A DNA stretch of 64,000 nucleotides. Source: Phycisphaerae bacterium (GTDB lineage: Bacteria; Planctomycetota; Phycisphaerae; UBA1845). Both the position numbers and the translations under genes were made by a program. The notes under the pieces were generated by a model. That model saw nothing but the letters and a program-made list of their open reading frames with translations, was not told where the DNA came from and made no database searches. The stretch spans positions 4,803 to 68,802 of the forward strand of contig JAJDEA010000079.1 in assembly GCA_029260035.1 (NCBI GenBank), in the 5' to 3' direction. Position 1 is the stretch's first letter, and each line of letters starts with the position of its first letter. Below are positions 3,270-21,160 of the stretch, piece by piece.

Positions 3270-3360
3270 GTTTTGCGCAAGTTGCCAAATCTATAAGTTG
3301 TTCTAAAACATACCCGGTTTTTGCGCAGATTGCCGTTTCTATAAGTTGTTGTAAAATAAG
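3270..3360 (+). repeat. Two tandem ~45-bp direct-repeat units at the left end of copy 1, candidate transposase-binding sites
   Basis: Unit 1 is GTTTTGCGCAAGTTGCCAAATCTATAAGTTGTTCTAAAACATACC. Unit 2 is GGTTTTTGCGCAGATTGCCGTTTCTATAAGTTGTTGTAAAATAAGGA. Related half and full units recur at 12362-12430 and, diverged, at 20848-20900. Confidence 0.5.
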
Positions 3361-3640: not shown

Positions 3641-3655
3641 AGGTGCTTCATCCAA

Positions 3656-5020
3656 CTATTGCTCATCCTTCACATTGAGTTGATCTGCGAGGCCTCTGAT
3701 AACTGGGTGCAACTTTATCGATGGAATCCTGTTAGACAATTCTCTATAAAAGGGCTCACGGCGATCGAGCATTTCCCGCACAGGATACGCATCGCTATCG
3801 CTCGTGACCAGTAATAGCATTCGATCAAAAATGCCCATTGCACTGAAGCGGTTGAGTCTGACAGAAGCGACGAGCACGGCTTCGAGTGCAAGAGTGCGAA
3901 TATCTGTGTCATCTGTTGATTCGTAAATGATTCGCATTCGTTTGGCGACTGAGTCTGCATAGGGAAATGCTTGGTTTCCAACGGCATCGTCAAGTGCCTG
4001 TACATATGCTTTGAGGACAGGTCGAAAATCATTTGCCGCCAGAGTCGCGGCGTTCGGGAGTATTTGCTGTGGGAGACGGTCAACCAATTCGAGGTAGGTT
4101 TCGCCCGAAGCGGGGATTGATTCTTGCGCGAGAAGCTGTAAGGCCTTGCGCAGGTCCTTAGCGCGATATTGGTGCCTCGCAACGCGTTCCTGGATTTGGG
4201 TGACTACGGCTTCGTATGCGCCAATCGGATTTGCTTCTGGGTCTTTTGCGACCCGGTAAATATTCACTCCGTCAAGCAATTCCCCAACGGTTTGATATCG
4301 CTCGTCGGGATGCTGTTCCGTGGCCCGTCGCACAGCGTGTTGGAGTCCAGGAGGTAATGCGCTTGGATCAATCAATGCAGGGTTGAGACCTGTGACAAGC
4401 TCATATAGAGTCTTGCCGAGTTGAAAAATGTCTGTACGTTCGTCCGCATCGCGACTACCTCCATCGATTCGCTGTTCTGGGGCGAGGTATCGTTCTGTGC
4501 CGATAACATGACGCTGTTTGGTTAGAATTGTAGTGTCACGCTTGCTTAGCTTTGCCAAACCAAAATCTGCGAGAACAACTGTCCCGTCAGCAAAGATTAG
4601 ACCATTCCCCGGTTTTATGTCGCGGTGAAAAGCTCCTGAGTTGTGGATCGCTTGTACACCTTCGCACAATTGCGTGAACGCGTCAAGTGCCATATCTTCG
4701 TCCTTCGACAGGGCATCCAGGCGTTTATCAAGACTGCTTTCGGCATAAGGCATCACGAAGTACGGCGGTTCTTTGTCAAGTTGAACATCTATGACCTCAA
4801 CGACGTTTGGATGGACTATATCCACGGCAATGCGTACTTCGCGACCGAATCTACGGATGGATTCATTGTCATCTCGATGGCAGTATTTGATAGCGACTAC
4901 TTTTCTATCGGTAAGACGCTCAGCCTTGACGACGGTGCCCATACCCCCAAACCCTACCTTGTCAAGTATGTGGTATTTGCCATCCAGAGTTGCGCCGGGT
5001 TTGAATTCATCTAGCCCCAT
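3656..5020 (-). CDS. Hanks-type Ser/Thr protein kinase (N-terminal kinase domain, ~180-aa C-terminal helical domain of unknown function)
   Basis: 454 aa. Gly loop GFGGMGTV, VAIK, HRDIKPGN, DFG, APE. Starts 10 bp after the stop of the upstream HTH gene, so it is likely co-transcribed. Confidence 0.8.
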   Translation of the reverse strand: MGLDEFKPGATLDGKYHILDKVGFGGMGTVVKAERLTDRKVVAIKYCHRDDNESIRRFGREVRIAVDIVHPNVVEVIDVQLDKEPPYFVMPYAESSLDKRLDALSKDEDMALDAFTQLCEGVQAIHNSGAFHRDIKPGNGLIFADGTVVLADFGLAKLSKRDTTILTKQRHVIGTERYLAPEQRIDGGSRDADERTDIFQLGKTLYELVTGLNPALIDPSALPPGLQHAVRRATEQHPDERYQTVGELLDGVNIYRVAKDPEANPIGAYEAVVTQIQERVARHQYRAKDLRKALQLLAQESIPASGETYLELVDRLPQQILPNAATLAANDFRPVLKAYVQALDDAVGNQAFPYADSVAKRMRIIYESTDDTDIRTLALEAVLVASVRLNRFSAMGIFDRMLLLVTSDSDAYPVREMLDRREPFYRELSNRIPSIKLHPVIRGLADQLNVKDEQ

Positions 5021-5030
5021 AGGGTTTGCC

Positions 5031-6461
5031 TCATTCTTGTTTACGTTTCTTATTAGTCATGCCCTTGTCACGCGGCGAGGCTTTCTTCCTCGCCGCTTTC
5101 GGTATCTTTCGCTTCGTAGTGGATGTCGCGCGACTCTGCTTTGGTGACTTCTTTGGTTTGGCTTCCGAACGCGACTTATCCGCTCCGACGTCATCGCTAC
5201 CATCAAGGATAAGCTGACCTGACACAAATAGCTGCTCCACATGGCTGTAGTCCGTCGATTCAATGGTCCCTCGTCGTAGCTCCCTGCGAATGCGCCTCTC
5301 TACTTTCTTGAGCAGATCGATTATCTCCTCGCGCTGCTCGTCAACACCGGGATCAAGTGCGTCTGGGCGTTTTGCGAAATTGAGCTGGAGTGGTTGCCGT
5401 CCAAGCCCATGAATCGATGACCAAGCGTGTGCATCGCTTAAGTTGTAGATTGTGTCGACGACGCATTGTAAGTTGAAGATCAGAGCCTCTCGTCCGAGCG
5501 ACGCCTTGGCGATGTCCGATGACAAAGTAGTGGTGAGGGACCCCATGATTGAAGGTCCAAAGTCGACGCGATCGGGAACATAGACATACTCACTCCGAGT
5601 TCGCGCTTCCTGTGTGCATGCCTCGGATATAAAAAACTCAACCTGACGACCGTTAACAGCCTCAACAACGTCACATGACACGGCATCGACACGAAATGAA
5701 TCGTCGTCATTTGGGTTGCTAAACCGCATCGTTAGAATCGTATCGGCGATTCCGCGCTCAATCGACCAATAAGAAAGTTGGGATATACACTCGTTCAAGC
5801 GGTCAGTACTGCTTAAGAGCCACCGACGATATGCTTCAGCCATCACTTCGGAGTATAGTCTCTGAAGCAGGTTTTTGTCGGTGACACTCGTAGCAAGGCG
5901 TAGCTCCTCCGACACAAACTCCTCGGGGATTGAGTATTCTGGCGTAGTTTCATTCTGGTACTGCGAATCGATCAAGCCAAGTTCGTACACAGCAGGAGGC
6001 CATGCAAGCAACCGAAAATCCAGATCAGCATGTCCCGATCGCAACGCCCACAGCATGAGCACCTGACTGGCTGAGCGCACTAGCGCGGATGTAAGGTCCG
6101 ATCCCGCCGGTGGTGAGTCGATGCCTTGAGGTACTTCATGATTCTCGACCGCCAACAGTCCGGCGATCAAGTTTTGGGCAATATCGTAGCCTGAGCTATA
6201 GAGTCGTTTGGCTTCAGTAGGTGAATTCCGAACATCTGCAAGGTGGAATAGTTGTCGGCGTTCGTGGTCAGATAAATCGAGCGCGTCAACGACTTGAAGA
6301 AGCACATACTTATTGATCTTACGACGTGAACGCTCCCAGTCGGAGATGAAATCCGGATTGCGGATATCCTTGAGACGTTGCGACAACGCGTGCGCGCTTA
6401 TACCGCGAGCTTTGCGAAGCGAGCGGAGTTGCTCGCCAAATCTATCTGGGGGGCGTTTCAT
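5031..6461 (-). CDS. XRE-type HTH protein, candidate repressor-c analogue of copy 1, with a large C-terminal domain and a lysine-rich tail
   Basis: 476 aa. N-terminal FGEQLRSLRKARGISAHALSQRL is an XRE-type HTH. The C-terminus KSRSEAKPKKSPKQSRATSTTKRKIPKAARKKASPRDKG is lysine-rich. It is transcribed leftward, divergently from the transposition genes. The N-terminal ~120 aa is homologous to 13399-14667. Confidence 0.6.
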   Translation of the reverse strand: MKRPPDRFGEQLRSLRKARGISAHALSQRLKDIRNPDFISDWERSRRKINKYVLLQVVDALDLSDHERRQLFHLADVRNSPTEAKRLYSSGYDIAQNLIAGLLAVENHEVPQGIDSPPAGSDLTSALVRSASQVLMLWALRSGHADLDFRLLAWPPAVYELGLIDSQYQNETTPEYSIPEEFVSEELRLATSVTDKNLLQRLYSEVMAEAYRRWLLSSTDRLNECISQLSYWSIERGIADTILTMRFSNPNDDDSFRVDAVSCDVVEAVNGRQVEFFISEACTQEARTRSEYVYVPDRVDFGPSIMGSLTTTLSSDIAKASLGREALIFNLQCVVDTIYNLSDAHAWSSIHGLGRQPLQLNFAKRPDALDPGVDEQREEIIDLLKKVERRIRRELRRGTIESTDYSHVEQLFVSGQLILDGSDDVGADKSRSEAKPKKSPKQSRATSTTKRKIPKAARKKASPRDKGMTNKKRKQE

Positions 6462-6589
6462 TCCGGGAATCTTACCACCTTCAGGGTTTATTGGTATCTT
6501 ACTGGGCTTTCCAAATAATCACGGCAAATTTCCGGATTATTTTATTGACATTCCGGATTTAATCTGGTATTCCCGCGTTCGTGGAAACT
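6462..6589. promoter_or_regulatory. Divergent control region of copy 1 with two TTCCGGATT direct repeats (candidate operators)
   Basis: AATTTCCGGATTATTTTATTGACATTCCGGATTTAATC lies between the leftward repressor-like gene and the rightward regulator/transposase operon. The corresponding region of copy 2 (14668-14788) has a different sequence. Confidence 0.35.
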
Positions 6590-6826: not shown

Positions 6827-7134
6827 GTAGAAGCACAGACAACACGAAGCCAATCCCACGGGTAACGGTGCGGTGTCTGAATCGGGTTCTCATCGGCGAG
6901 CGCATCCATGATCTTCGAGTCGAACGCGGCTGGAAGGCTCTTCAATTAGCACGCGCGACGGGAATTCCACGAAGTACGATTGCTGCGATCGAAACCGGTC
7001 GAATGCTCCCGGACCCTGACAGATTTCTGGTACTCGCCGCAGTGTTTTGCATTTCGGTCGATTTTCTCATGACGGGTAGATCATCGCCCGTCGAGGCTAT
7101 GCATGATGGCAACGAGCACACAAACGAGAACTGA
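6823..7134 (+). CDS. XRE-family HTH regulator
   Basis: GWKALQLARATGIPRSTIAAIETGRMLPDPDRFLVLAAVFCISVDFLM is a typical HTH_3 domain. Paralogue at 15031-15330. Confidence 0.65.
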   Translation: MSRSTDNTKPIPRVTVRCLNRVLIGERIHDLRVERGWKALQLARATGIPRSTIAAIETGRMLPDPDRFLVLAAVFCISVDFLMTGRSSPVEAMHDGNEHTNEN

Positions 7135-7669
7135 GGATATGAACGCAAATGCAATAGGGCGAAGCGTACCTTTCCCAGGCGAATGGGTGACGATTTCCGA
7201 AGCCGTACGACTGACGGGCGAACGACAGGGAATATGGTGTCGACGCGCTAACCGTGAATTTAGCAATGCACTAGACGTCGGTCGCGCCTCACATGCGATC
7301 AAAGCACCCATTGGCGGTGGCAGTTCCCGAATCATTTGGTGGCTATATCGCGGGCTTGACGCACGCTTGGCATTGGATTTGGACGAACAAATTCGTCGAG
7401 ACAAGGCCAGTGTTTTTCCATTCTCGAAAGAGAAGCAAAAGCGAGCTTGGCGCCGATGTCGTTGGGTCGTTGAGTGGCGTCGACTATGTAACGAGGAACC
7501 CAAAGGTGGACGAACACGAAGACAACTCGCCGGGCTAGTTGTGAGCGCGGCGAAACTGATAGACGGCAATTGCTTCAAGATCAGTATCCGATCACTTCAG
7601 GGATGGTGGCGTCGCTATGCTGCCATAGGCCGTGGTGGCGGTATCGTCGGAGTCGAAGGGTTGATATAA
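7103..7669 (+). CDS. Stand-alone paralogue of the MuA-like transposase N-terminal DNA-binding region (candidate transposition regulator)
   Basis: GEWVTISEAVRLTGERQGIW...RIIWWLYRGLDARLALD...FKISIRSLQGWWRRYAAIGRGGGIVGVEGLI aligns with the N-terminus of 8268-10613 (DWLTVDQAARLTGDSPRTIRW...AVWLIHRRLDHRL...FTVSVRSLQIWRRAYNDTTPGGRIAGIAGLI). Confidence 0.55.
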   Translation: MMATSTQTRTEDMNANAIGRSVPFPGEWVTISEAVRLTGERQGIWCRRANREFSNALDVGRASHAIKAPIGGGSSRIIWWLYRGLDARLALDLDEQIRRDKASVFPFSKEKQKRAWRRCRWVVEWRRLCNEEPKGGRTRRQLAGLVVSAAKLIDGNCFKISIRSLQGWWRRYAAIGRGGGIVGVEGLI

Positions 7670-8267: not shown

Positions 8268-10613
8268 ATGGCGTTAGTGGCACGAAATCTTGCGACGGAA
8301 ATCGACGAAAGGGATTGGCTGACAGTCGATCAGGCCGCACGTCTTACCGGCGATTCGCCGCGTACGATTCGCTGGCGTGCTTTGAATGAAGCTGGTGATT
8401 CACGTCGTAGCGGACGAATGCCGCTAGCCCGGAAAGCACCGTCTCGCGATGGCCGAACGAAGGCCGTATGGCTGATTCACCGACGCCTGGATCATCGTTT
8501 GTCCCGCAACGTAAGTAAGCCCGACCGAGAAAGCCGCGATCGTAACGTGCTTCTCGAAAAGTATCCGAAACATGCCATCGATGGAGCCTATCGCAAGGCT
8601 CACTGGCTCCGACGATGGGATCAACTTTGTCAGGAACATCGATTAGCCGGTGAGTCCGAACTGACACTTGCTCGGAGAGTCGTTGCCGAGGCCAAAGCCG
8701 TTGAGGCGGGTCAATTCACTGTGAGCGTACGAAGCCTGCAAATCTGGCGAAGGGCTTATAACGACACAACACCCGGTGGTCGAATTGCCGGTATTGCAGG
8801 GTTGATCGATCGGCGCTCGTTATCCGGGAATCGCGACGGCGGTGCTACTGGCTCAGTTGAGGGACGGTCGCCCGACGCGGTCGAGTATTTTTATGGTTTG
8901 TATCATTGCCAGAGCAGGCCGAGTGCCAAGACGTGCCATGCCGCAACACTTCGAGAATCCAATCGGCAGGGATGGGAATGGTCGGTGAGTTATTCCGCAA
9001 CATTGAAGTGGCTGAAAGTCTACGACGATCGTTCGGTGACGTGCCTCATGCGTGAGGGACACGACAAGTGGGCACGGAAATACATGGCGCACAATGAGGT
9101 TGATTACTCACTGATTGATCCGGGAGCGCTTTACGTTTGCGATCACACTCAGCTTGACTGCTGGTGCGAGCACGACGGGAAGCAACTACGACCGTGGCTG
9201 ACGGCGATACAGGACTGTCGTAGTCGTCGGATCGTCGGGTACCACGTCGGCATCGCACCGCATCAAGACGCGATTGTTGCAGCCATGCTTATGGCATTTC
9301 GAGAATGCGCCATACCGGAACGTATGCGGATCGATAACGGTCGGGATTTTACGTCTCGGCTGTTGACTGGCATTACCAAGGCAACCCGCGACCGGCTGCG
9401 CACAGAGCACGGACCAGACTGGCACCGCGTTCTCAAGCGAGACGCGAATCTTGTCGAGTGTGTCGATTCGCGGTTCATGGGTATCGTGCCGGAGCTTGGC
9501 ATCGAGCTAGTCTACGCGATTCCGTACGCGCCTTGGTCCAAGGGGCAACTCGAGCGCTGGTTCCGAACCTATCACGACCTGTGCTGCAAAACGTTTGCGA
9601 GTTATTGCGGGAATTCGGTGCTGACGAAACCGGAGTGTTTGGAAGCAATTCGTCGCGGCTATACGAAGGATCAAAAGCGGCGCCTTCGCAAGCGATACGG
9701 CAGGGCATGGAAGAAAGTGGCCGTGCTTCGGTTCGTCGATACTCGTGATGTACCAACACTGGATCAAGTGCGAGCGGCGACGGCTGAATCGATCGAAGTT
9801 TATCATCGCAGCCCGCACAGCGCCGACGATATGGGCGGTCGCACGCCCTTTGAAGTGTGGGGTACAGCGACGACGCTTCGCCGTGCCGAGGATCGCGACC
9901 TATTGTTCTTCATGCAGTCGCGTGGCGTCTACAAAGTTGGCCCCAATGGTGTTGGGTTCCGGGTTGGGAACAGGCGGCTCACCTACGGTGCTGCCGCACA
10001 GGAGCTTTACCGGCTTCGTGGCCGCGATGTGTTCATCACGCTCGATCCGTCCGACTTGTCGCACTGCTACGCTTGGACGCCAGAGCGTGCCAACCGCCGA
10101 TTCATTGTACGGTTGGATTCCAATGATCGACTATCACCTGCTGCAACGGTCGATGATTTGCGGGAAGCCAGCGCCACGATAGAGCGGCGGCGGAAGATTG
10201 GACGCAAGGCGCAACGTGAAGCACCCAAGCGAATGCGGTCAGTATCACAGGAACTCACGGCTCAGCGTCGCGAGCATGTGCAGGAACTTCGTGCGACCGG
10301 CACGGATGGGAAACCAAACGCCAATGTGAAGGTCGTCCGAACGGGGTTTGAAGGGGCATCGAAACCGGTTCGGACGCCATCCGCAAGCGGAAGTGCAAGA
10401 GACTTGAGTGCCGAGCGCGAGGCGCTTGGGTTTGTGCCGCCGCCTCCCGATCCTGAACCGAAACAGGAACGCGCGACGTTGGATATGATCGCTGGGAATG
10501 TGTGCTTGCCCAAGGATGGTAGCGAGCAAAAAGACGGCAAGGACGCCGAGGAGCCTAAATCGGACTTGCTCAGTCTGATTGCGGGGAATCGGCATGAACG
10601 AACAAACGAATAA
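8268..10613 (+). CDS. MuA-like DDE transposase (rve-type integrase core)
   Basis: 781 aa. N-terminal Mu-type DNA-binding region. Candidate catalytic triad D (VCDHTQLD), D (RIDNGRDF), E (PWSKGQLERWF). The long C-terminal region probably contacts the ATPase. Confidence 0.85.
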   Translation: MALVARNLATEIDERDWLTVDQAARLTGDSPRTIRWRALNEAGDSRRSGRMPLARKAPSRDGRTKAVWLIHRRLDHRLSRNVSKPDRESRDRNVLLEKYPKHAIDGAYRKAHWLRRWDQLCQEHRLAGESELTLARRVVAEAKAVEAGQFTVSVRSLQIWRRAYNDTTPGGRIAGIAGLIDRRSLSGNRDGGATGSVEGRSPDAVEYFYGLYHCQSRPSAKTCHAATLRESNRQGWEWSVSYSATLKWLKVYDDRSVTCLMREGHDKWARKYMAHNEVDYSLIDPGALYVCDHTQLDCWCEHDGKQLRPWLTAIQDCRSRRIVGYHVGIAPHQDAIVAAMLMAFRECAIPERMRIDNGRDFTSRLLTGITKATRDRLRTEHGPDWHRVLKRDANLVECVDSRFMGIVPELGIELVYAIPYAPWSKGQLERWFRTYHDLCCKTFASYCGNSVLTKPECLEAIRRGYTKDQKRRLRKRYGRAWKKVAVLRFVDTRDVPTLDQVRAATAESIEVYHRSPHSADDMGGRTPFEVWGTATTLRRAEDRDLLFFMQSRGVYKVGPNGVGFRVGNRRLTYGAAAQELYRLRGRDVFITLDPSDLSHCYAWTPERANRRFIVRLDSNDRLSPAATVDDLREASATIERRRKIGRKAQREAPKRMRSVSQELTAQRREHVQELRATGTDGKPNANVKVVRTGFEGASKPVRTPSASGSARDLSAEREALGFVPPPPDPEPKQERATLDMIAGNVCLPKDGSEQKDGKDAEEPKSDLLSLIAGNRHERTNE

Positions 10614-11783: not shown

Positions 11784-12230
11784 ATGATGATCGCAAACAT
11801 AAGAACAGAACGAGGTTCGAGCACACCAAAGCAACGGCAACTGCTTCACCAGCTTAAGAGGCGGTGGGGTTGGACGGACGATCAGCTTCACGACGCGATC
11901 GGCGCAGTAAGTACAAAGGTTCTGTCCGCCGCCGACGCGAGCCGTTGCATCCGTCGTCTAGGCGGCGGAGAGTTGCCGAATCCGCCCGGTCGAAAGCCAG
12001 CCCCGTATCAGGGAAGGAGACAGAAGACTGACGCAACTCGCATGATTGCTCCGGGACACGAAGAGCAAATCGAACGGTTGCTCCGCGAGCACTTTGGCGA
12101 CTTGGAATCCGGCTTAGCTTGGCTCGAAAAGAACTTTGACGTGCAATGTACGCGCGACCTTTTGACAGCGAAAAGAGCGGGTGAAGTGATCTACGTTCTC
12201 AAGGAGATGATCGCCCGAACCAATAAATGA
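11784..12230 (+). CDS. GemA/gp16-like (DUF1018-like) small regulatory protein, tentative
   Basis: ~149 aa. KQRQLLHQLKRRWGWTDDQLHDAIGAVSTKVLSAADAS resembles the GemA-family N-terminal pattern (K..LI.KIHIA...LGLDDD.YR..L..V.GK.S). It is the last gene before the right end. Confidence 0.5.
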   Translation: MMIANIRTERGSSTPKQRQLLHQLKRRWGWTDDQLHDAIGAVSTKVLSAADASRCIRRLGGGELPNPPGRKPAPYQGRRQKTDATRMIAPGHEEQIERLLREHFGDLESGLAWLEKNFDVQCTRDLLTAKRAGEVIYVLKEMIARTNK

Positions 12231-12360
12231 GACGGCTTTGACCGTTATTTGAAGTGCCTTCGATGGCCGTTCAAACGGCCTTCGGAATTTGAAAACTCAC
12301 AACGCTCCCGACGACTCGTTATACGCAAAACCCGAGTCGATCAGGGAGCGTTCGTCTTAT
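12231..12360 (+). repeat. Conserved right-end block of copy 1, containing an inverted copy of the end core
   Basis: Near-identical to 20718-20847. TACGCAAAACCCGAG at 12321-12335 is the reverse complement of CTCGGGTTTTGCGTA; compare CTGGGTTTTGCGCA at the left end. Confidence 0.55.
12265..12290 (+). terminator. Possible intrinsic terminator after the GemA-like gene
   Basis: Hairpin GGCCGTTcaAACGGCC followed by TTCGGAATTT. Copy 2 has a partly compensatory variant GGCTATCCAAACAGCC. The T-tract is weak. Confidence 0.25.
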
Positions 12361-12706
12361 ATCCGTCGCGCAGAGTAGTTCCGTTTCGCGCAGAGTACGG
12401 TTCCCCTTTAGAGTTGTTGTAAAATAAGGACTTACGGGAATTGTTGATCCTAATCAATTTCGCAGCGCAGAACGGATTGGCGGTTGGAACCTACAATTGG
12501 GCGCCGTGAGGGCGGGAGAGAATCGGCAATCGGCAATAGCAACGGCAATGTCCGGAATCGGACGCACAAAACTTCGCAGTACCGCTGCAATTCCAAGCCA
12601 GCCTCTGATCCTGTGATTTTCGACTCAACCGCTGGTTTTGGACGTCGTCCGGACCACCTTCGACGGCGGTTTGGACGCCCTTCGATAGTGGTTGGACGAG
12701 GCTCGA

Positions 12707-13396
12707 TTATAGAGTATTCCATACCTCGATCCCCCCTTCGCCGACAACCCAAAGAAATAGAAGAATCCCAGCCGCGAAGAATGCGCCGCTTAGCCAAAAC
12801 CAGAACTTCCGAGCATACTTTTCGACTTTCAGCACTGCCGTAAAAACTCGGTTGTGTCGAATCTGGACTCCTTCGTGGTCGTGTTTCCGATTCATTGGCT
12901 GAAGGTTTGAATCAATAATCCTGAATGCGTCATCCGGTTTCAATGGTTGTAGCCCATGCGCTGAACCACACATTTGAAGCAAAGCAATACGCATTTCTTT
13001 CGATGCACGCCTTTCGGCAATCCACAGAAATTCCCGCAGTTGAGCTGGACCTGCATGGTCTTTTCGGTAGTCACCAAAACTACCGTACCTTTTGACGATC
13101 TCGGGGCAGGCGATCCAATAGATTGCTTGCCCAATTACGAAGAGACCGGACATGAGGTAAAAACGCTGCCAACTGAACGGCAGTGCAATCGTAACAGTAA
13201 TCGGAGCATCAATGCCGAACCCGAGATGCGAGAAGTCGAGGGTATGTTGACCTGCAAAGGGAGCGAGCAACTTGGCAGCGATGGGCACAACGAGTAGCCA
13301 AACAAATGAAAATGTGACGAGTCGGCTGTTGCCGAGTGCTCGGAGCAAGCCCCAGTGGAAACCGCTGTCCCAAGTTGCCGTCTTAAGGTCTACCAT
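12707..13396 (-). CDS. Small integral membrane protein (cargo of copy 2)
   Basis: 229 aa with several hydrophobic helices (LVTFSFVWLLVVPIAAKLLAPF, LMSGLFVIGQAIYWIACPEIV, FWFWLSGAFFAAGILLFLWVVG). No recognisable family. Starts 2 bp after the stop of the upstream HTH gene. Confidence 0.5.
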   Translation of the reverse strand: MVDLKTATWDSGFHWGLLRALGNSRLVTFSFVWLLVVPIAAKLLAPFAGQHTLDFSHLGFGIDAPITVTIALPFSWQRFYLMSGLFVIGQAIYWIACPEIVKRYGSFGDYRKDHAGPAQLREFLWIAERRASKEMRIALLQMCGSAHGLQPLKPDDAFRIIDSNLQPMNRKHDHEGVQIRHNRVFTAVLKVEKYARKFWFWLSGAFFAAGILLFLWVVGEGGIEVWNTL

Positions 13397-13398
13397 AA

Positions 13399-14667
13399 CT
13401 ACGATTTGCGTTTCTTCTTGGCTTTACCCTTGGCACGTTTGGTTGTTTTCGTCGTTTGCTCATTAGAAACGGTTGAATCGGATCGTGTCTCTGTCTTCAT
13501 GAGAGTCTTCGCTGACAATACAAGCTTCAGCATATTGGCCATCTCGCTCTCGGCCTCATCATAGACATCGCCTAGCGCATCCATCTTGTCAATGTTGCGC
13601 CTTGGAGCATCCGCCAACTGGAGATACATGTCGTACATAGCAACTATGACAAGGTGCTTTCCTTTTGGCATTAACCTCAGACTGAACGCGGCGTCGTGGA
13701 TGATCTGTTGGACGTATGCCGAGACTGGCTGTTCCCACTGTGCGCGGTCAAGAAATTCTCGTGCCAGAAATGCTGCGTGGACAGCCATTACGTCTACTGA
13801 GTCAAGTGGGTGCGGGAACACACGGAGATTGTCAGACTCGCTCATTGCACTGCAGGACGACCAAACTCTATCAATCAGCAGGCGTTCACATGTACGCGAA
13901 ATAACTTTTGCACTTACACCTTGCGCATTCAAAAGTCGGTCCGCTCGACCGTCGGCAAAATCGAACGTCAACCTTGTCTGAAGCAGCGGATCCCAGTCCA
14001 TCGAGTACCGACTCATCGCGGAAGCCAGTGTCATTGACCGATCTAAATCAGAGAAAAGCCAGAGGCGGTACACTCCGGCCATCGCCCTGCCGTTAATGGA
14101 AGTTCCGAGGGTCGAATTTACAAACCGCTTTTCCAATGAAGAGGGTAGAGCAACTGTTGATAACAGTCCCTTGGGTATAGGATGCGCCGACTCTTTCCGC
14201 TTCACGATCTTATTTTTGTAGACCCATTCTGGCCACTTAATGGCGTCTACACCATACTCGGTGAATCCACTTATTGCATAGAGAGCCAGGAGAAAGCAGG
14301 CTGGTACAGTGGCGTCAGACACCCCGTCCAACACGTCTTCGTCGATAGGCCCATGCTCGACATATGCCAAGGCGTTGGCTACGTTCGATGCGGCTATTTG
14401 CGCATCGTCTGTTAATTCGCTCCAGACATCTGGGTGATTTCGGTTGAACGCCAACTTCATGAGTTGCTGGCGTTCAGACGGAGTCAGACCCAGTTTTTGG
14501 ACAACCACACTTAGAATATCCATATTGACGGTGCGGTTGTACCGTTCCCATCCACCAATATATGTATCGCTTTTCCCGACGGCGCGAGAAACGGCCTGGG
14601 CGGTCATTCCTCGCTTTGTACGGAGTTTCTGTAGATAGACGCCGAATTCGTCGTGTGTTTGGGACAT
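13399..14667 (-). CDS. XRE-type HTH protein, candidate repressor-c analogue of copy 2, with a divergent C-terminal domain and a lysine-rich tail
   Basis: 422 aa. FGVYLQKLRTKRGMTAQAVSRAVGKSDTYIGGWERYNR is an XRE-type HTH. C-terminus TKTTKRAKGKAKKKRKS. The N-terminus is homologous to 5031-6461; the remainder is different. Confidence 0.6.
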   Translation of the reverse strand: MSQTHDEFGVYLQKLRTKRGMTAQAVSRAVGKSDTYIGGWERYNRTVNMDILSVVVQKLGLTPSERQQLMKLAFNRNHPDVWSELTDDAQIAASNVANALAYVEHGPIDEDVLDGVSDATVPACFLLALYAISGFTEYGVDAIKWPEWVYKNKIVKRKESAHPIPKGLLSTVALPSSLEKRFVNSTLGTSINGRAMAGVYRLWLFSDLDRSMTLASAMSRYSMDWDPLLQTRLTFDFADGRADRLLNAQGVSAKVISRTCERLLIDRVWSSCSAMSESDNLRVFPHPLDSVDVMAVHAAFLAREFLDRAQWEQPVSAYVQQIIHDAAFSLRLMPKGKHLVIVAMYDMYLQLADAPRRNIDKMDALGDVYDEAESEMANMLKLVLSAKTLMKTETRSDSTVSNEQTTKTTKRAKGKAKKKRKS

Positions 14668-14788
14668 GGCCGTATATTAGCCTCACAAGGTATATCCGCA
14701 ATGATATATCGTCGCGGCCATGGAAAGTGAAAATTATTTCATTTATTCTATAGACAAAGTAATTGAAATTACCGATAATCGAATCAGA

Positions 14789-15034
14789 ATGAATTTCTAT
14801 GAACCGAGATTTCGACGCGATGCGATCCGGGAGTTGATGGAGCGAGAGGGGCTGAACGCAAGCGCCTTCGCATCCCGAGCGTCGGTTCAAAGAACTCTGA
14901 TTGGTGGATGGTTGCCAGGCGTTGTGACACCGCATGTCGGAACGCTTACCCGCCTGTGCCGTGTGTTCGATGTTCCGATCGATTTTTTCTTCGACCAGGC
15001 GCCGAGCGATCCGGTTAACCAAGAAACGGTATGA
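14789..15034 (+). CDS. Small HTH-like DNA-binding protein (paralogue of 6590-6826)
   Basis: MNFYEPRFRRDAIRELMEREGLNASAFASRASVQRTLIGGWLPG... Confidence 0.5.
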   Translation: MNFYEPRFRRDAIRELMEREGLNASAFASRASVQRTLIGGWLPGVVTPHVGTLTRLCRVFDVPIDFFFDQAPSDPVNQETV

Positions 15035-15330
15035 GTAATAACACACCCAATACGAAGCGAATCGCACGCGTAACAGTGCCGTGTCTGAATCGCGTTTTGA
15101 TCGGCGAGCGCGTTCACGATCTTCGAGTCGAACGCGGCTGGAAGGCTCTTGAATTGGCTCGGGCAACCGGAATTCCACGAAGCACGATTGCCGCGATCGA
15201 AACCGGACGGATGCTTCCGGACCCTGACAGATTTCTGGCGCTCGCCATGGTGTTCGGTGTTTCGGTTGATTTTGTCATGCTCGGCGAACCGGTTCCCTGC
15301 GACGCAAGACAAGGACCAACGGATGCGTAA
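15031..15330 (+). CDS. XRE-family HTH regulator (paralogue of 6823-7134)
   Basis: GWKALELARATGIPRSTIAAIETGRMLPDPDRFLALAMVFGVSVDFVM. Confidence 0.65.
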   Translation: MSNNTPNTKRIARVTVPCLNRVLIGERVHDLRVERGWKALELARATGIPRSTIAAIETGRMLPDPDRFLALAMVFGVSVDFVMLGEPVPCDARQGPTDA

Positions 15331-16150
15331 AACGGAAGTCAACATTCCGGAAATTGTAGTGCCGCGAGTGACAAAATGCGGGATCGGCGTGCGACTCAAG
15401 CAGCTTCGGAGTAACCGCAACTTGACGGCTGAGTACGTTGCCCGAGCGATCAAACTCCCTACTCGATTTATCCGAACCGTGGAGCGGGGACGCATGATGC
15501 CGACGGCTGCGGAGCTTGTGGCACTTGCGGTGGTGTGCAGGACGTCCGTTGACTATCTCCTGATTGGCCAGTCTGCAACTCTCCACTGCTCAAACGATAG
15601 ATCGAGACGATCTCGCACGCTGCCAACGAGACCGATCGAGCAGCGCACGCCAGCCGCAGGCGAATGGGTCACCGTCCGTGAGGCCGCCCGGTTGAGCGGC
15701 GTGTCAGTTAGCAATTGGTACGCGCGTGCTATCCGCGTAGCCGAGTATGCGATGCGTACAGGAATTAAATCGCTAGCCGTCCATGCGCCGATTAGCAGGA
15801 ACGGATCGCGGCGCGTGTGGTGGTTGCATCGTTCGCTGGACGAACGATTGCGATTGGATTTCGACGCACAATTCAGGCTGGATCAATCCCGCAAGTTTCC
15901 ATGCTCCAAGGCACAACTTGAACGTGGAAGGCGACGGGCCAAGTGGGCTGCCGAATGGCGCAAGGCGTGCGACGCCCAAGCAAAGGGAAAACGAAACACG
16001 ATTGCGCTAGCGAAGCGCACAGTACGAAGGGCAAAACGCGCGGAAGGCTCGGGTTTCAAGATCAGCGTTCGATCTCTTCAGGGATGGTGGCGACGCTATG
16101 CAGGCTTAGGCCCTAACGGCGGTATCGCCGGAGTCAAAGGACTGATCTGA
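15323..16150 (+). CDS. XRE HTH fused to a MuA-N-terminal-like DNA-binding region (paralogue of 7103-7669 with an extra HTH)
   Basis: ATG at 15323 overlaps the previous stop. N-terminus VRLKQLRSNRNLTAEYVARAIKLPTRFIRTVERG is an HTH. C-terminus GEWVTVREAARLSG...RRVWWLHRSLDERLRLD...FKISVRSLQGWWRRYAGLGPNGGIAGVKGLI. Confidence 0.55.
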   Translation: MRKTEVNIPEIVVPRVTKCGIGVRLKQLRSNRNLTAEYVARAIKLPTRFIRTVERGRMMPTAAELVALAVVCRTSVDYLLIGQSATLHCSNDRSRRSRTLPTRPIEQRTPAAGEWVTVREAARLSGVSVSNWYARAIRVAEYAMRTGIKSLAVHAPISRNGSRRVWWLHRSLDERLRLDFDAQFRLDQSRKFPCSKAQLERGRRRAKWAAEWRKACDAQAKGKRNTIALAKRTVRRAKRAEGSGFKISVRSLQGWWRRYAGLGPNGGIAGVKGLI

Positions 16151-16202
16151 ATGGTTCAGTGATTAAGAGTCATAGCAACGGCACAAGGATGACGGAGGCA
16201 GC

Positions 16203-16500
16203 GATGACGACGACAAGGAAACGAGCGAAGACGAAACGTGCTCGAAGCGTAGCCAACGTCAGTCGCAAGACGGCGACGGCTAAAACAAGAAACAATCGAG
16301 ACCGGAAGCTCGTGCTAAGTGTTTCTGACATCGCGATTTTGGACCGAATGCTTGAGGACGGTTCGATCAGCGAGGTCGTTACTTTGTCAGCGAGTGATCT
16401 GGCGACGTGGGTTCACAACATCGGCACCGATCTGGATCGGGCGGAAGCGCTTGTGGCTGTCCTGCCCATAGCGAGGCGCGTGTACGCGCGATGCAATTAG
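16203..16500 (+). CDS. Hypothetical Arg/Lys-rich protein (paralogue of 7723-8019)
   Basis: GGAGG lies upstream of the ATG. MTTTRKRAKTKRARSVANVSRKTATAKTRNNRDRK... Confidence 0.4.
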
Positions 16501-16501
16501 A

Positions 16502-16711
16502 ATGACTGACACGATCGCCAATCCGCAGGTCTTTCCGTTTCGACCGGACATGTGCCGAGCTACTGGGCATGCGGACACGCCGGAGCGTGAGGCGGCGTTA
16601 CGGCAGGCGCACGCGCTCATCGATCGGCTCGGGACAGCGGACGTGATCGCGACGCTCCCGGTGTTGGGTAAATACGCCCATTCGATCGAGCAGGAGCAAC
16701 GGCCTGTTTGA
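16502..16711 (+). CDS. Hypothetical small protein (paralogue of 8021-8230)
   Basis: MTDTIANPQVFPFRPDMCRATGHADTPEREAALRQAHALIDRLG. Confidence 0.4.
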   Translation: MTDTIANPQVFPFRPDMCRATGHADTPEREAALRQAHALIDRLGTADVIATLPVLGKYAHSIEQEQRPV

Positions 16712-16748
16712 ATGACGATCGGTTGCATAGAACTGCGAGTAGGAACTC

Positions 16749-19100
16749 ATGGCGTTGGCTGTACAGAATCTTGAAAGAGAATGCGACGGCAAGGACTGGC
16801 TGACGATCGATGAGGCCGTGAGTCTTACCGGCGATTCGCCGCGAACGCTTCGCTGGCGCGCCTTGAAGGAGGCGGATGATTCACGTCGCAGTGGGCGAAC
16901 TCCACTAGCCCGAAAGGCACCGCCACGCGATGGTCGAACGAAATCAGTGTGGTGGGTTCATAGACGCTTGGATCGACGTTTATCTAGCTGTCCGAGCAAG
17001 CCCGACCGGAACGATCAGGACCGTGGAATGCTCTTGGAACGGTTTCCTGCCCATCAAGTCGAACACGCCTACCGGAAAGCGCGTTGGCTGCGTCAGTGGG
17101 AGCGCGCGTGCCAGCGCCGTCGGTCGAGCGACGTCACACAAAAGGCACTGGCGGAAAGCATTGTTACCGAGGCACGCGAAGTTGAGGGCGCCAGCTTTCA
17201 CATTAGTTACAGAGCGCTTCAACACTGGAGACGGGCATACAATGCGCGCCATGCGAACGGTCGAATTGCTGGGGTCTCAGGGCTAATTGATTGTCGGTCG
17301 ATTGAATCGCCAAAGGAAACCGACAGTGATACCAAGGGGTCGTCGGGAACTCGCGCTCCACAGTCCATAAATTTCTTCTATGAGATGTTCCACACCGAGC
17401 AACGCTTGAGCGTAAGGTTGTGTCACGAGTTGACAGCGCGTGAAGCCAAAAATAAGGGCTGGGCTTGGCCGCCGTCGTACAGTGCAACGTCTCGGTGGTT
17501 GTCACGCTATGACAACCGGTCCACTTCGTACCTGCTTCGCCATGGTACCGACGTGTGGTGCCATCGCTATATGCCGTTTCTTGAAATCGACTATACGGCA
17601 ATCGACCCCGGCCAGTTCTTTCAGACCGATCATCACCAGTGCGATTTTTGGATCGAACACGAGGGAAAGCAATTGCGCCCGTGGCTCACGATTGTGCAAG
17701 ACCTTAGAAGTCGGGCTGTGTGTGGATGGCACCTTGGCGTCAGTCCACACCAGGACGCCATCGCCGCTTGTTACCTCTCGGCATTCCGAAACTGGTCAAT
17801 TCCCGAAACGCTCCGGATCGACAACGGCAAGGATTTTGCGAGTCGTTTGCTGACCGGTGTCACCAAATCGACGCGTGAACGGTTGCGCCGAGAACACGGT
17901 TCAAATTGGCGACAAGTTCTCCGGAGAGACGAAAACCTAGTCGATCAAATTGATCCAAGGTTTGTTGGAATCACCGAAGAGCTTGGCATTGAAACGATCT
18001 ACGCAATCCCGTACAGCCCGTGGTCGAAGGGTATTACGGAGCGTTGGTTCGGTACGTTTGAAAACCGATGCGGAAAATCATTCACAACCTACTGCGGGAA
18101 CGCGGCATTCAACAAACCGCAGTGCCTGGACGTGATTCGGCGAGGCTACACCTCTGAACAAAAGCGTCGGCTTCGCAAGCGCCACGGTCGTGACTGGAAG
18201 AGAATCGCCGTATTGCGATTCGTGGACACGTCCGACGTCCCTACGCTGGATCAGGCACAGGCCGCAATCGGCGAGTATGTCGAAGAATACCACAATACGG
18301 CACATACCGCAGACGATATGGCGAATCGAACCCCCCTTGAAGTTTGGCAGACCGCGACGCAATTGCGACGGGCAGATGACACGGCTCTGCTTTTTCTCAT
18401 GCAGGCTCGCGGTGTGTACCGAGTCGGCCCTAACGGCGTCGCGTTCAAGGTCGGTGGTGTCCGCATGACGTACGGCATGGGGAATCAATACCTGTACAAA
18501 TACGTCGGTCGTGATGTGTTCATCACGATTGATCCGAACCACTTAGACTGTTGCTACGCCTTTACGCCAGACCGCGCCAATCGCCGCTTAATAGGACGGT
18601 TGGATGCGAACAAGCGAATCAGCCCAACGGCTACGGTGGCCGATCTTCGCGAGGCGAGTGCCGAAGTGGGACGGCGTCGGAAGATCATGCACAAAGCGGT
18701 TCGCGAGTCACCAGCCCGCACGCGGACCGCTGTTGACGAAATGGCCGCCAAACGTCGCGAGCGTGTGCAGGAACTCCGTGCGACCGGCACGGATGGAAAA
18801 CCAAACGCCAACGTGAAGGTTGTCCGAACAGGGTTTGAAGGGGCATCGAAACCAGTTCGGACGCCGTCCGCAAGTCGTAGCGCAAGAGACTTGAGTGCCG
18901 AGCGTGAAGCGCTGGGATTTGTGCCTGCACCTCCTGTTCCGGAGAAAAATCAGGAGCGTGCTACGCTGGATATGATCGCTTGGAATGTGTGCTCACCCAA
19001 GGATGGGAGCGAGCCAGATCATGGCACGGACGCCGAGGCGCCTAAGTCAGACTTACTGAGTTTGATTGCGGGGAATCGGCATGAGCGAACAGACGAATAA
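16749..19100 (+). CDS. MuA-like DDE transposase (copy 2)
   Basis: 783 aa. D (QTDHHQCD), D (RIDNGKDF) and E (PWSKGITERWF) are conserved. By eye, about two-thirds identical to copy 1, except the last ~100 aa, which are nearly identical. Confidence 0.85.
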   Translation: MALAVQNLERECDGKDWLTIDEAVSLTGDSPRTLRWRALKEADDSRRSGRTPLARKAPPRDGRTKSVWWVHRRLDRRLSSCPSKPDRNDQDRGMLLERFPAHQVEHAYRKARWLRQWERACQRRRSSDVTQKALAESIVTEAREVEGASFHISYRALQHWRRAYNARHANGRIAGVSGLIDCRSIESPKETDSDTKGSSGTRAPQSINFFYEMFHTEQRLSVRLCHELTAREAKNKGWAWPPSYSATSRWLSRYDNRSTSYLLRHGTDVWCHRYMPFLEIDYTAIDPGQFFQTDHHQCDFWIEHEGKQLRPWLTIVQDLRSRAVCGWHLGVSPHQDAIAACYLSAFRNWSIPETLRIDNGKDFASRLLTGVTKSTRERLRREHGSNWRQVLRRDENLVDQIDPRFVGITEELGIETIYAIPYSPWSKGITERWFGTFENRCGKSFTTYCGNAAFNKPQCLDVIRRGYTSEQKRRLRKRHGRDWKRIAVLRFVDTSDVPTLDQAQAAIGEYVEEYHNTAHTADDMANRTPLEVWQTATQLRRADDTALLFLMQARGVYRVGPNGVAFKVGGVRMTYGMGNQYLYKYVGRDVFITIDPNHLDCCYAFTPDRANRRLIGRLDANKRISPTATVADLREASAEVGRRRKIMHKAVRESPARTRTAVDEMAAKRRERVQELRATGTDGKPNANVKVVRTGFEGASKPVRTPSASRSARDLSAEREALGFVPAPPVPEKNQERATLDMIAWNVCSPKDGSEPDHGTDAEAPKSDLLSLIAGNRHERTDE

Positions 19101-20223
19101 CGAACACGCGTTTGATCTTCTTTCTGAATCATCACGCGTGGTAAGGACAGCAAGGATGCTCGATCCAGACAACCAACTCAAGGACAACCAGCGCAAGGAT
19201 ATTTGTGAGCGTGTGCTTCGGTTCATCGAAGAGCACGGAATCACCCAAGCATCCGTGGCTCGTGAAGTGGGAATCAGTTCCACAACGATCAGTGATATAC
19301 TTCGTCTCCGGTACAGAGGTAAGACGGGCGATGCGCAGCTCATTAAGTTGCACAATTGGCTTGAACTCGCCGCGCGGCGTGAGAATCTCTTGCGTAACCG
19401 CCAATTCGTTGAAACCTCCGTTGCCTTGGAAATACTCCAAGTGGCTACTGTCGTAGCGGAGACGTGCAAGATGGGTGTCGTGTTCGGTCCGGCACAAATA
19501 GGCGAGACGTTTGCGCTCACGGCAATCGAAGGCGACCAGCGCTTTGGCGATCCGGTTCTCATTCGGATTGACGAATCGATGCTTCGTCCGCTTCCTGTGT
19601 GTCGTGCGATCGCGTCTCAGTTTGAACTCAGTACAAACGGCCCGTTCGATACGCTATTCAGACGGATCATCAAGCGGTTGGCAGGCACAAAACGGATGCT
19701 GATTTTCGACGAAGTCGAGCGTGTGAACTACAAGGCGCTCGAAATGATCCGCGACCTACACGACAAGACCGGCTGCCCCGTGCTGCTTGCAGGTAAGCCA
19801 ATGATCTTCGCAAAGCTCGGATTCCGAGAGGTAGGCGACTTCTCCGAAGTGACAGACCAACTGGCCGCACGCGTTGTGATACGGCGCGACCTCACCGAGC
19901 GAACGCGTGGCGATCACCCGGCGCCGCTGTTTACTCTGAAAGACATCCGCAAACTGATCGGGCGATCCGATCTGAATCTAAAGGTAACGAAGGACGCGGA
20001 AAAGTGGCTGCAAGAGAGAGCATCCACACTTGGCATGGGTGGCATCGGGGCGGCGCTTGTTGCGCTCTATCTTGCTGCCAAAGTTGCGTTTGCGAAGGGT
20101 GACGAATCAATTACTAACGATCATCTGGAAAGAGTCACCGACTTAACGATCGGGCATGAGAGCGCAGCACACATTGCCGACTTGGTTGCGGATTCTTCCG
20201 GTGTCATGCGACGGGTCGTTTGA
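19081..20223 (+). CDS. MuB-like AAA+ ATPase with HTH (copy 2); Walker A lysine replaced by glutamate
   Basis: ~90% identical to copy 1 by eye, but the P-loop reads GPAQIGET (codon GAG at ~19504-19506, versus AAG at ~10996-10998 in copy 1). Confidence 0.8.
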   Translation: MSEQTNNEHAFDLLSESSRVVRTARMLDPDNQLKDNQRKDICERVLRFIEEHGITQASVAREVGISSTTISDILRLRYRGKTGDAQLIKLHNWLELAARRENLLRNRQFVETSVALEILQVATVVAETCKMGVVFGPAQIGETFALTAIEGDQRFGDPVLIRIDESMLRPLPVCRAIASQFELSTNGPFDTLFRRIIKRLAGTKRMLIFDEVERVNYKALEMIRDLHDKTGCPVLLAGKPMIFAKLGFREVGDFSEVTDQLAARVVIRRDLTERTRGDHPAPLFTLKDIRKLIGRSDLNLKVTKDAEKWLQERASTLGMGGIGAALVALYLAAKVAFAKGDESITNDHLERVTDLTIGHESAAHIADLVADSSGVMRRVV

Positions 20224-20270
20224 AATAAAAAGGTTGTTCCGAACGGAACTCGACAGTTATCGCGGTGGAT

Positions 20271-20717
20271 ATGATGATCGCAAGCATAAGAACAGAACGA
20301 GGTTCCAGCACGCCCAAGCAAAGACAACGGCTTCATCAACTCAAGAGGCGGTTGGGTTGGACAGACGATCAGCTTCACGAAGCGATCGGCGCAGTGAGTA
20401 CAAAGGTTCTGTCCGCCGCCGACGCGAGCCGTTGCATCCGTCGTCTAGGCGGTGGAGAGTTGCCGAATCCGCCGGGTCAAAAGCCAGCGCCTTATCAGGG
20501 GCGACGACAAAAGACCGACGCAACACGCATGATCGCTCCGGGACACAAGGAACAAATCGAGCGGTTGCTCTGTGAGCACTTCGGCGACTTGGAGTCCGGT
20601 TTGGCGTGGCTCGAAAAGAACTTTGACGTGAAGGATCCGCACGACCTTCTAACGGCAAAGCGGGCCGGTGAGGTGATCTATGTTCTCAAGGGGATGATCG
20701 AACGAACAAACGAATGA
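20271..20717 (+). CDS. GemA/gp16-like small protein (copy 2), tentative
   Basis: ~90% identical to 11784-12230. Confidence 0.5.
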   Translation: MMIASIRTERGSSTPKQRQRLHQLKRRLGWTDDQLHEAIGAVSTKVLSAADASRCIRRLGGGELPNPPGQKPAPYQGRRQKTDATRMIAPGHKEQIERLLCEHFGDLESGLAWLEKNFDVKDPHDLLTAKRAGEVIYVLKGMIERTNE

Positions 20718-20850
20718 GACGGCTTTGACCGTCATTTGAAGTGCCTTCGATGGCTATCCAAACAGCCTTCGGAATCTGAAAACCCACGACGCTCCCGACG
20801 ACTCGTTATACGCAAAACCCGAGTCGATCAGGGAGCGTTCGTCTTATGCC
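20718..20850 (+). repeat. Conserved right-end block of copy 2; a diverged left-end-like unit remnant follows to ~20900
   Basis: Matches 12231-12360. The following CGCCAAGTAGGTATTCAACTCGCCAAGTACGGAGCGCCTTTAGAG resembles the half+full unit at 12362-12413. Similarity to the left-end block stops after TTTAGAG. Confidence 0.5.
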
Positions 20851-21160
20851 CCGTTCGCCAAGTAGGTATTCAACTCGCCAAGTACGGAGCGCCTTTAGAG
20901 CAAATAACGTTTCTTCATGACCATTGCCTCCTTAGATCCAAACCGAAAACACTTCCCTAGCGGTGGATTGGTTCCAGGGGGTAAGGCCACTGGCTTATTG
21001 ATGATTGACGCCTGTTTTCGAAGACTCAGATTCCTACTGTCTGCGTCCACCACGAACGCATCCTGGGGGCACATGTATAGACTTGTCGATCCCGCTTTTG
21101 AATACCACAGAAAGTCCTAGGATGTTAATTGGGTGAGCCTAACAGGTGGAGGATTTTATC

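Follow-up and report, generated by a model that had tools for sequence, protein, structure and literature searches.

A three-transmembrane protein gene coupled to a repressor-position gene in a tandem Mu-like transposon: a candidate Rex-like membrane effector

A regulator gene of a mobile element that is followed within a few base pairs (bp) by a gene for a small membrane protein raises the question whether the two form a repressor-linked accessory operon, as known from the rex genes of phage lambda. The pair considered here lies in a 64,000-nucleotide (nt) stretch of DNA from a Phycisphaerae bacterium (assembly GCA_029260035.1, contig JAJDEA010000079.1, positions 4,803 to 68,802; hereafter the window), in which a small Mu-like element stands twice in tandem (copy 1, ~3319/3344-12413; copy 2, ~12412-20900). 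In copy 2, a gene for a 422-amino-acid (aa) XRE-family helix-turn-helix (HTH) protein is coupled to one for a 229-aa protein with three predicted transmembrane (TM) segments, and the two form, together with the DNA upstream, a block without blastn similarity to its counterpart in copy 1. The reading that we favour, tentatively and with slightly less than even confidence, is that of a Rex-like, repressor-co-transcribed 3-TM membrane effector for abortive infection or exclusion, encoded by a two-gene accessory operon in an immunity-like block; it draws on gene context from a small sample. The features on which the argument turns are as follows.

12707-13396, minus strand: predicted three-TM inner-membrane protein, 229 aa, candidate effector (hydropathy, AlphaFold, family of relatives)
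13399-14667, minus strand: XRE-family HTH gene, 422 aa, with a Pfam HTH at residues 7-69, in the position of the Mu c repressor
13394-13422, minus strand: conserved gene junction GCCAAGAAGAAACGCAAA-TCG-TAG-TT-ATG (tail codons, stop, 2-bp spacer, next start)
14668-14796, no strand: block-specific divergent regulatory region, from the HTH start to the first conserved early gene
12686-14796, no strand: exchangeable block of copy 2 (cargo, HTH gene, regulatory region), delimited by blastn; copy-1 counterpart 3618-6587

The original prediction, made from the sequence alone, had credited the 229-aa protein with several TM helices and no recognisable family. Hydropathy indeed revealed three hydrophobic segments of TM length (residues ~26-47, 79-98 and 198-220), and the AlphaFold model built with 11 homologues (predicted local distance difference test score, pLDDT, 75.6; predicted template modelling score 0.63) placed helices at residues 25-47, 76-96 and 197-228, matching these segments, along with a short beta hairpin (49-53, 66-70) in the TM1-TM2 loop and a helical TM2-TM3 region of ~100 aa. 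Positive-inside counts in 160 relatives gave K+R values of 5.5 at the N-terminus and 1.5 in loop 1, and the predicted topology is N-in/C-out with the long TM2-TM3 loop on the cytoplasmic side. Column entropy in the family was low in TM1 and TM2 (~1.7-1.8) and reached 3.56 in the hypervariable cytoplasmic residues 126-185; near-invariant among the 160 members were W15, G22, W33, V37-P38, A41, L72-P73-F74-x-W76, C97-P98, F185 and G210. As to the family, a word-indexed search returned 11, later 16, full-length relatives of 186-247 aa, and a profile run exhaustively against 1.84 billion cluster representatives retrieved 1,636 proteins at E <= 1e-3, 408 of them at E <= 1e-30; these representatives of 50%-identity clusters measure mostly 185-260 aa and were matched end to end. 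Judged by these matches, the 3-TM protein is a member of a large, widespread, uncatalogued family; the earlier statement stands for the TM helices and for the lack of a match to a catalogued family. The 229-aa open reading frame (ORF) is a real gene rather than a chance ORF, as its full-length relatives keep its length. By the same 11 close and 1,636 distant full-length relatives of similar size, we rejected the possibility, raised earlier as one that would overturn the prediction, that the protein is a pseudogene product or a fragment of a longer disrupted gene.

Comparisons with catalogued families remained negative throughout. The 229-aa protein itself matched nothing in Pfam, NCBIfam, PADLOC or PHROG, even at E <= 10, and none of 145 diverse family members matched a Pfam (E <= 0.001), NCBIfam or PADLOC family. 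At E <= 10, 16 members yielded no relevant Pfam match, the sole match to a holin family (PF23778, E 0.41) being confined to one of the 16. Among the TM effector families of Pfam (SLATT, S-2TM-beta, S-4TM, holins and others) and the defence proteins of PADLOC, profile comparison likewise brought up no consistent match, and searches of the PDB and of viral structures returned nothing or generic helical bundles only. The 3-TM protein itself was without a match in the phage and plasmid collections, and the family consensus sequence matched weakly on an Azospirillum chromid, in a record that carries no gene annotation.

The two genes are coupled as originally described: the TAG stop codon of the HTH gene is followed by TT and then by the ATG of the 229-aa gene, leaving a gap of 2 bp on the same strand, and no promoter-like site was detected between them in a consensus scan, the consensus of which may not be that of the host. 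The joint itself is conserved. A polybasic tail, ...AKKKRK[S/A/T], ends three upstream proteins, namely the 422-aa HTH protein, its homologue on a contig from another sample (L010) and an unrelated AbiTii-type protein that precedes a 3-TM relative on contig L001. All three genes spell the tail with one and the same 18-mer, GCCAAGAAGAAACGCAAA, and are each followed by the next ATG 2 bp after the stop codon. The 18-mer is unique in the window (chance expectation 0) and recurs with the same spacing at L010 1338-1368 (HTH gene, different cargo), at L001 6512-6540 and on L002-L005 and L013 (AbiTii-type gene, then 3-TM gene); no conserved junction was found in viral contigs. That genes with no other relationship use the same codons here points to a joint of recombination or to an RNA-level constraint, and the shared element may serve translational coupling. 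Since the 2-bp gap and the same junction recur in unrelated operons, the tight coupling supports the favoured reading.

The upstream gene was confirmed as that of an XRE-family HTH regulator by the ORF and by Pfam, whose gathering scores are passed at residues 7-69 for both HTH_3 (30.3 bits, cut-off 23, E 4e-07) and HTH_31 (29.1 bits, cut-off 27, E 1e-06). The N-terminal HTH is followed by a helical C-terminal domain of ~300 aa and the polybasic tail ...KGKAKKKRKS. The AlphaFold model, which had three sequences to draw on, has a mean pLDDT of 43 and is confident for residues 1-80 only, falling below 50 beyond; a PDB sequence search came back empty. The closest relative, P0013 on contig L010, is 65% identical and is the sole close homologue among 5.8 billion proteins; with such a homologue in another sample, the HTH ORF is a real gene as well. 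An AbiTii domain hidden in the C-terminal region was looked for and not found (BLASTP against the L001 partner, E 0.27; nothing in Pfam at E <= 10). The AbiTii family PF18864 matched none of the window proteins at E <= 10 and occurs only in the partners of homologues (L001, 3e-20; L010, 3e-11).

In copy 1, the corresponding site holds the following two genes.

5031-6461, minus strand: XRE-HTH gene, 476 aa, divergent full-length homologue of the 422-aa protein
3656-5020, minus strand: cargo of copy 1, a Hanks-type Ser/Thr kinase of 454 aa (Pfam Pkinase, 2e-37), 10 nt after the 476-aa HTH gene

The two HTH proteins had been thought to share their N-terminal ~120 aa only and to be unrelated over the remaining ~300 aa. 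This part of the original prediction had to be given up: BLASTP aligned residues 1-383 with 1-387 at 25% identity (E 2e-21), and the C-terminal parts alone were 22% identical over 275 columns (E 5e-7), with a local score of 101 versus 33.8 +/- 4.6 in 300 shuffles (largest 52; z = 14.5). On the basis of these alignments, the 422- and 476-aa proteins are divergent homologues over their whole length. What does differ is the cargo, as had been noted from the start: where copy 1 has its kinase, copy 2 has the 3-TM protein. The top PADLOC model for the kinase was PD-T4-6 (PDLC04042; 3.6e-55, residues 10-285 against profile positions 5-278 of 292), a match that does not imply function, as the PD-T4-6 models overlap generic Hanks kinase similarity. 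No family match in Pfam, PADLOC or NCBIfam was obtained for its C-terminal ~240 aa. The kinase also matches the MADS MAD6 kinase (NCBIfam, 8e-33, below cut-off).

The survey of the slot covers the three known members of the HTH family, which carry three different occupants, a kinase (copy 1), the 3-TM protein (copy 2) and an AbiTii gene (L010), so that the slot is not invariant among related elements. On L010, the HTH homologue is followed by a 47-aa ORF (1322-1465) and then by the AbiTii-family gene (Pfam PF18864, 3e-11). The short ORF was considered as the 5' end of a 3-TM gene, a possibility that could be dismissed, as it is a truncated N-terminus of the 345-aa protein type whose gene precedes the 3-TM gene on contig L008; by this resemblance, it is the scar of a cargo replacement. 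The pairings seen among slot genes thus comprise HTH/3-TM, HTH/AbiTii, AbiTii/3-TM and L008-type protein/3-TM. The slot occupants look like defence genes because the copy-1 kinase matches PD-T4-6 and L010 carries an AbiTii gene.

The notion of a variable cargo slot is borne out by these three occupants and needs correction as to the unit that varies within the window. By blastn, the two copies correspond at 3319-3617/12384-12685 (83% identity), 6588-7071/14797-15279 (87%), 7574-8527/16055-17008 (84%) and 9293-12413/17780-20900 (78%), and no similarity was detected between 3618-6587 and 12686-14796, the gap into which the studied gene pair falls exactly. As flanks of 83-87% identity enclose this dissimilar block, cargo, HTH gene and ~130 bp of promoter DNA appear as one unit of exchange rather than the cargo alone, and the block may be likened to a phage immunity region. 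The G+C content of both variable blocks (~0.49-0.51 in 3001-6000 and 12001-15000; ~0.50-0.51 for the block of copy 2) is lower than that of the transposition genes (0.55-0.575) and of the left chromosomal flank (0.60-0.63), a difference that fits a separate acquisition of the cargo.

With respect to its site, the HTH gene complies with the repressor position assigned to it in the original prediction. Of the pair of minus-strand genes at the left end it is the inner one, and the early operon with the phrog_310 transposase and the phrog_296 MuB-like ATPase runs divergently from it; in the ORF map, a leftward left-end gene thus faces away from an early transposition operon, as does the Mu c repressor gene. 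Similarity to copy 1 is absent across 14668-14796 and returns abruptly at 14797, close to where the first early gene begins (likely ATG 14789 or 14801). As similarity between the copies resumes only there, the early promoter must fall within the ~130 bp that accompany the HTH gene. This region contains an imperfect palindrome (14696-14717), the inverted pair CATGGCCG/CGGCCATG at 14665-14672 and 14715-14722, and a plus-strand promoter-like site (14751-14779, TAGACA-17-GATAAT, 10 of 12 matches), the latter a consensus match only, which may not be of the promoter type of the host. Downstream of the 3-TM gene, a terminator-like hairpin on the minus strand (12574-12590) is again no more than a consensus match. 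Given this arrangement, the HTH protein is a plausible regulator of both divergent transcripts. On L010, the 68 bp upstream of the HTH gene are ~85% identical to the regulatory region of the window, which argues for L010 and copy 2 being of the same immunity type, and the difference of the repressor-plus-operator block between otherwise similar elements suggests that the tandem copies are heteroimmune. The start codon of the 422-aa gene is preceded at ~7 nt by a -10-like TAATAT (14672-14690, minus strand), which is kept in L010; as a speculation, the HTH transcript might be leaderless, like that of lambda cI from PRM.

To call the HTH gene the repressor goes a step beyond its position, since the element encodes a second candidate regulator of transposition.

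15149-16150, plus strand: ORF with an XRE HTH (Pfam HTH_31, 2e-10) and a transposase-like C-terminal 162 aa

Over these C-terminal 162 aa, the identity to transposase residues 1-180 is 38% (E 3e-27), and the ORF stops at a point beyond which the transposase goes on. The ORF has the look of a duplicated DNA-binding domain of the transposase that serves as a regulator, and its product may be the genuine Mu c-like repressor here. In Mu, the c repressor and MuA have a DNA-binding domain in common, and Mu is not known to have a cargo gene between c and attL. Like c, the gene of the 422-aa protein points leftward at the left end and diverges from an early operon of the ner/A/B type, but its product differs from the Mu c repressor in lacking similarity to the transposase of the element (BLASTP E 0.67), a similarity that the plus-strand ORF has instead.

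Further information on the 3-TM protein came from the genes next to its relatives in other genomes, listed here with the gap between the upstream gene and the 3-TM gene where one applies.

L001-L005 and L013 (one lineage, six contigs): upstream 231-aa AbiTii-domain protein (PF18864, E 3e-20), gap 2 bp
L008: upstream unrelated 345-aa protein, gap 16 bp
L009: upstream unrelated 258-aa protein, gap 4 bp
L015-L018 (distant 3-TM member): BREX BrxL, then Gp49/HigB-like, HTH (HTH_3) and SecB genes, gap 64 bp
L021 (divergent 3-TM member, Azospirillum): integrase fragment and serine recombinase (resolvase) on either side
Other loci: aminotransferase, short unknown ORFs, IS110 transposase, gap variable

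The abortive-infection reading gains indirectly from those loci in which 3-TM relatives sit by an AbiTii-domain protein or by BrxL and the HigB/HTH/SecB trio. On L015 (1-3924; also on L016-L018), the 3-TM relative is found at the end of the BrxL gene, followed by the HigB-like/HTH_3/SecB trio, a layout that looks like a toxin-antitoxin-chaperone system within a defence island.

Among named systems, the layout of copy 2 is closest in kind to that of cI-rexA-rexB of lambda, and likewise to gp30/gp31 of mycobacteriophage Sbash and to Gordonia phage CarolAnn, where an accessory membrane protein gene also lies directly downstream of a repressor-position gene on the same strand (PMC3564112, PMC6426596). 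The proposed logic, a cytoplasmic sensor acting on a small polytopic membrane effector, and the importance of a cytoplasmic loop would be shared as well (PMC3564112, PMC6426596). The likeness ends at the level of homology. RexB has 144 aa and four predicted TM domains (PMC6426596) compared with 229 aa and three TM segments in copy 2, and the pair is carried by a Mu-like transposon that lacks virion genes rather than by a lambdoid prophage. Homology to RexB was rejected after the profile of 16 family sequences had been compared with it by hhalign (probability 1.1%, 16 aligned columns), as was homology of the HTH C-terminal domain to RexA (probability 0.1%), and DUF4747, the RexA-type sensor, matched neither HTH protein nor their C-terminal parts at E <= 10. 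The arrangement that had been called cI-RexB-like is therefore upheld as to gene order, strand and spacing, not as to a RexB homologue or a DUF4747 partner.

The sister copy extends the parallel. In phage 933W, a eukaryotic-like kinase gene, stk, is co-transcribed with cI and aborts HK97 infection, and co-transcription with the repressor is likewise the case for RexAB of lambda and Hex of 434 (PMC3564112). Copy 1 likewise has a Hanks-type kinase in the slot, albeit one that fits PADLOC PD-T4-6 best, so that by layout the two copies together mirror the lambda and 933W alternatives. Lactococcal AbiT (AbiTi/AbiTii, PF18864) is linked in two ways, as 3-TM relatives are coupled to a PF18864 protein at a 2-bp gap and the closest HTH homologue has a PF18864 gene in its slot. 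Known partners of AbiTii are AbiTi (endoribonuclease-like, PMC13064643) or fused HEPN domains, whereas the window has no AbiTii domain and the partner elsewhere is a membrane protein. In AbiTii, the N-terminal, sensor-type domain is fused to HEPN effector domains and contact with a phage component has been proposed (PMC3710099; see also PMC13064643); by analogy, the separate 3-TM gene would occupy the place of the effector in the AbiTii-paired loci.

The mechanism that we propose would run as follows. The XRE-HTH protein would bind the ~130-bp block-specific divergent promoter region and from there control its own leftward transcript as well as the rightward early transposition operon. The 3-TM protein would be made from the HTH transcript across the 2-bp gap and the conserved junction, and would reside in the inner membrane as a latent effector. 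A trigger sensed by a cytoplasmic partner (in copy 2 the C-terminal ~300 aa of the HTH protein, elsewhere a protein with an AbiTii-type sensor domain) would cause the 3-TM protein to oligomerise or open and to harm membrane integrity or potential, and this damage would result in aborted infection or cell arrest. A conserved membrane core combined with a hypervariable cytoplasmic loop fits an effector with interchangeable partners. The analysis establishes the order and spacing of the genes, the predicted topology, the size of the family, the structure of the block and the links to defence genes; binding to an operator, a common transcript, contact between the partners, damage to the membrane and an anti-phage role are proposed on top of these.

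Several points weigh against this reading. The context survey is small, with ~10 independent neighbourhoods that are mostly on contigs of 1-4 kb; several of them, such as those with the aminotransferase or short unknown ORFs, show nothing related to defence, and the AbiTii pairing comes essentially from one lineage. The phage genome collection yielded no member of the 3-TM family and plasmids hardly any, and none of the 145 diverse members matched any PADLOC model. If the plus-strand ORF 15149-16150 were the real transposition repressor, the 422-aa protein might regulate its own cargo only. The promoter and terminator scans carry little weight, given that the consensus used may not fit the promoter type of the host.

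Among the rival explanations, an addiction module is unlikely, though not negligibly so: the 3-TM protein would be a membrane toxin and the HTH protein its antitoxin and autorepressor (HipB/HipA- or HigA-like), stabilising the transposon rather than acting against phages. The order of the genes, HTH first and effector second with a 2-bp gap, would suit such a module, as would the weak scores of the HTH protein against antitoxin-type models (couple_hipB 1e-3; PADLOC control protein 4e-06), the pairing of its copy-1 homologue with a kinase, which recalls HipBA logic, and the distant 3-TM relative directly after a toxin-antitoxin-chaperone-like trio. Yet homologous C-terminal domains would then need to counteract effectors as unrelated as a kinase and a membrane protein, and the partner at other loci is an AbiTii-type sensor domain, not a DNA-binding antitoxin. 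The toxin-antitoxin and abortive-infection readings overlap, and gene context does not separate them. Small membrane proteins expressed with repressors often act as exclusion proteins, P22 SieA and T4 Imm being examples. A non-lethal superinfection exclusion or envelope function of this Sie/Imm kind, by which the 3-TM protein would block DNA entry or alter a receptor or the envelope independently of an HTH sensor, appears distinctly improbable to us. Accessory genes expressed from PRM offer a precedent (PMC3564112), and loop 1, with its conserved LPFSW motif and beta hairpin, is predicted to be periplasmic. The tight pairing with varied cytoplasmic partners and the hypervariable cytoplasmic loop suggest intracellular coupling instead, and a transposon without virion genes has no evident reason of its own to bar phage DNA from entry.

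The polybasic C-terminal tail common to otherwise unrelated upstream partners of the 3-TM family, and the inheritance of regulator and membrane protein as one block with the promoter region, could also be accommodated by a membrane-anchored modulator, in which the 3-TM protein would sense the state of the envelope and sequester or release the HTH protein (e.g. via its tail), thereby tuning transposition with no killing involved. We regard this as very unlikely, in that the same type of HTH protein carries non-membrane cargo in L010 and copy 1 and most of the 3-TM family has no HTH partner at all. There is, finally, barely any likelihood that the 3-TM gene is a hitch-hiker, adjacent by a recombination accident and with no role tied to the element or the HTH protein. 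Neighbours across the family are indeed heterogeneous and the conserved junction may merely mark a recombination joint, but the frame is intact and of full length, all family-invariant residues are kept, and independent contexts show the same 2-bp coupling to a gene upstream.

Both copies encode a DDE transposase of ~780 aa (Pfam rve/DDE_2; phrog_310, E 5e-77), a MuB-like AAA+ protein of 385 aa (AAA_22; phrog_296, E 7e-45), a phrog_286 protein of 150 aa and several small XRE-type HTH genes. Neither copy showed virion genes in the ORF map or in the Pfam and PHROG comparisons, and the element is accordingly a Mu-like transposon of roughly 8.5 kb with early genes only. The tandem copies are flanked by a Fic gene at the left and a PQQ beta-propeller gene at the right. 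The left end of copy 2 precedes the cargo as follows.

12412-12685, no strand: conserved left-end segment of copy 2, 84% identical to 3344-3617, between the copy-1 junction (right end 12413) and the cargo

Blastn similarity between the copies is also missing at 7072-7573 versus 15280-16054 and at 8528-9292 versus 17009-17779; one dissimilar stretch lies in the middle of the transposase gene, and the transposases of the two copies are 63% identical overall. Immediately left of copy 1 are two 48-nt tandem repeats (3254-3349; compare the right end, 12366-12413), and 3319-3348 resembles the final 30 bp of the right end. From their sequence, these left-side repeats suggest a remnant of a third copy or insertion beside an existing end, which would make tandem arrays. 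Outside the window, the transposase profile matched one 3-kb genome contig (45% identity, with the repressor region not visible) and one viral contig (29%), and no metagenome contig; the DNA of the element had no match in phage or plasmid collections.

The kind of arrangement is already known; new are its carrier, a minimal Mu-like transposon with cargo in the immunity block, and a large uncatalogued protein family with its pairing to AbiTii-type proteins and to this HTH family. In a broader form of the proposal, which we consider somewhat doubtful, the 3-TM family would be a large class (at least 1,600 clusters at 50% identity) of interchangeable death or arrest modules for unrelated cytoplasmic sensors (AbiTii-type proteins, the C-terminal domain of this HTH protein and others), shuffled at the polybasic-tail/stop/start junction, with the Mu-like immunity block as a carrier that gives rise to heteroimmune-looking tandem copies with different defence genes. 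Even if the favoured reading is wrong, the region remains a clean immunity-block swap between tandem transposon copies. If it is true, a widespread family with no Pfam, NCBIfam or PADLOC entry would turn into a candidate for an effector of abortive infection, and AbiTii-type proteins and the present HTH family would be the first partners to consider. The logic of repressor-linked 'morons' (rexAB, stk and Sbash 30/31, in lambdoid and actinobacterial prophages) would then extend to minimal Mu-like transposons, in which the defence gene would move along with the immunity determinant, and the identical junction across unrelated operons would provide a handle on the recombination of two-gene defence modules.

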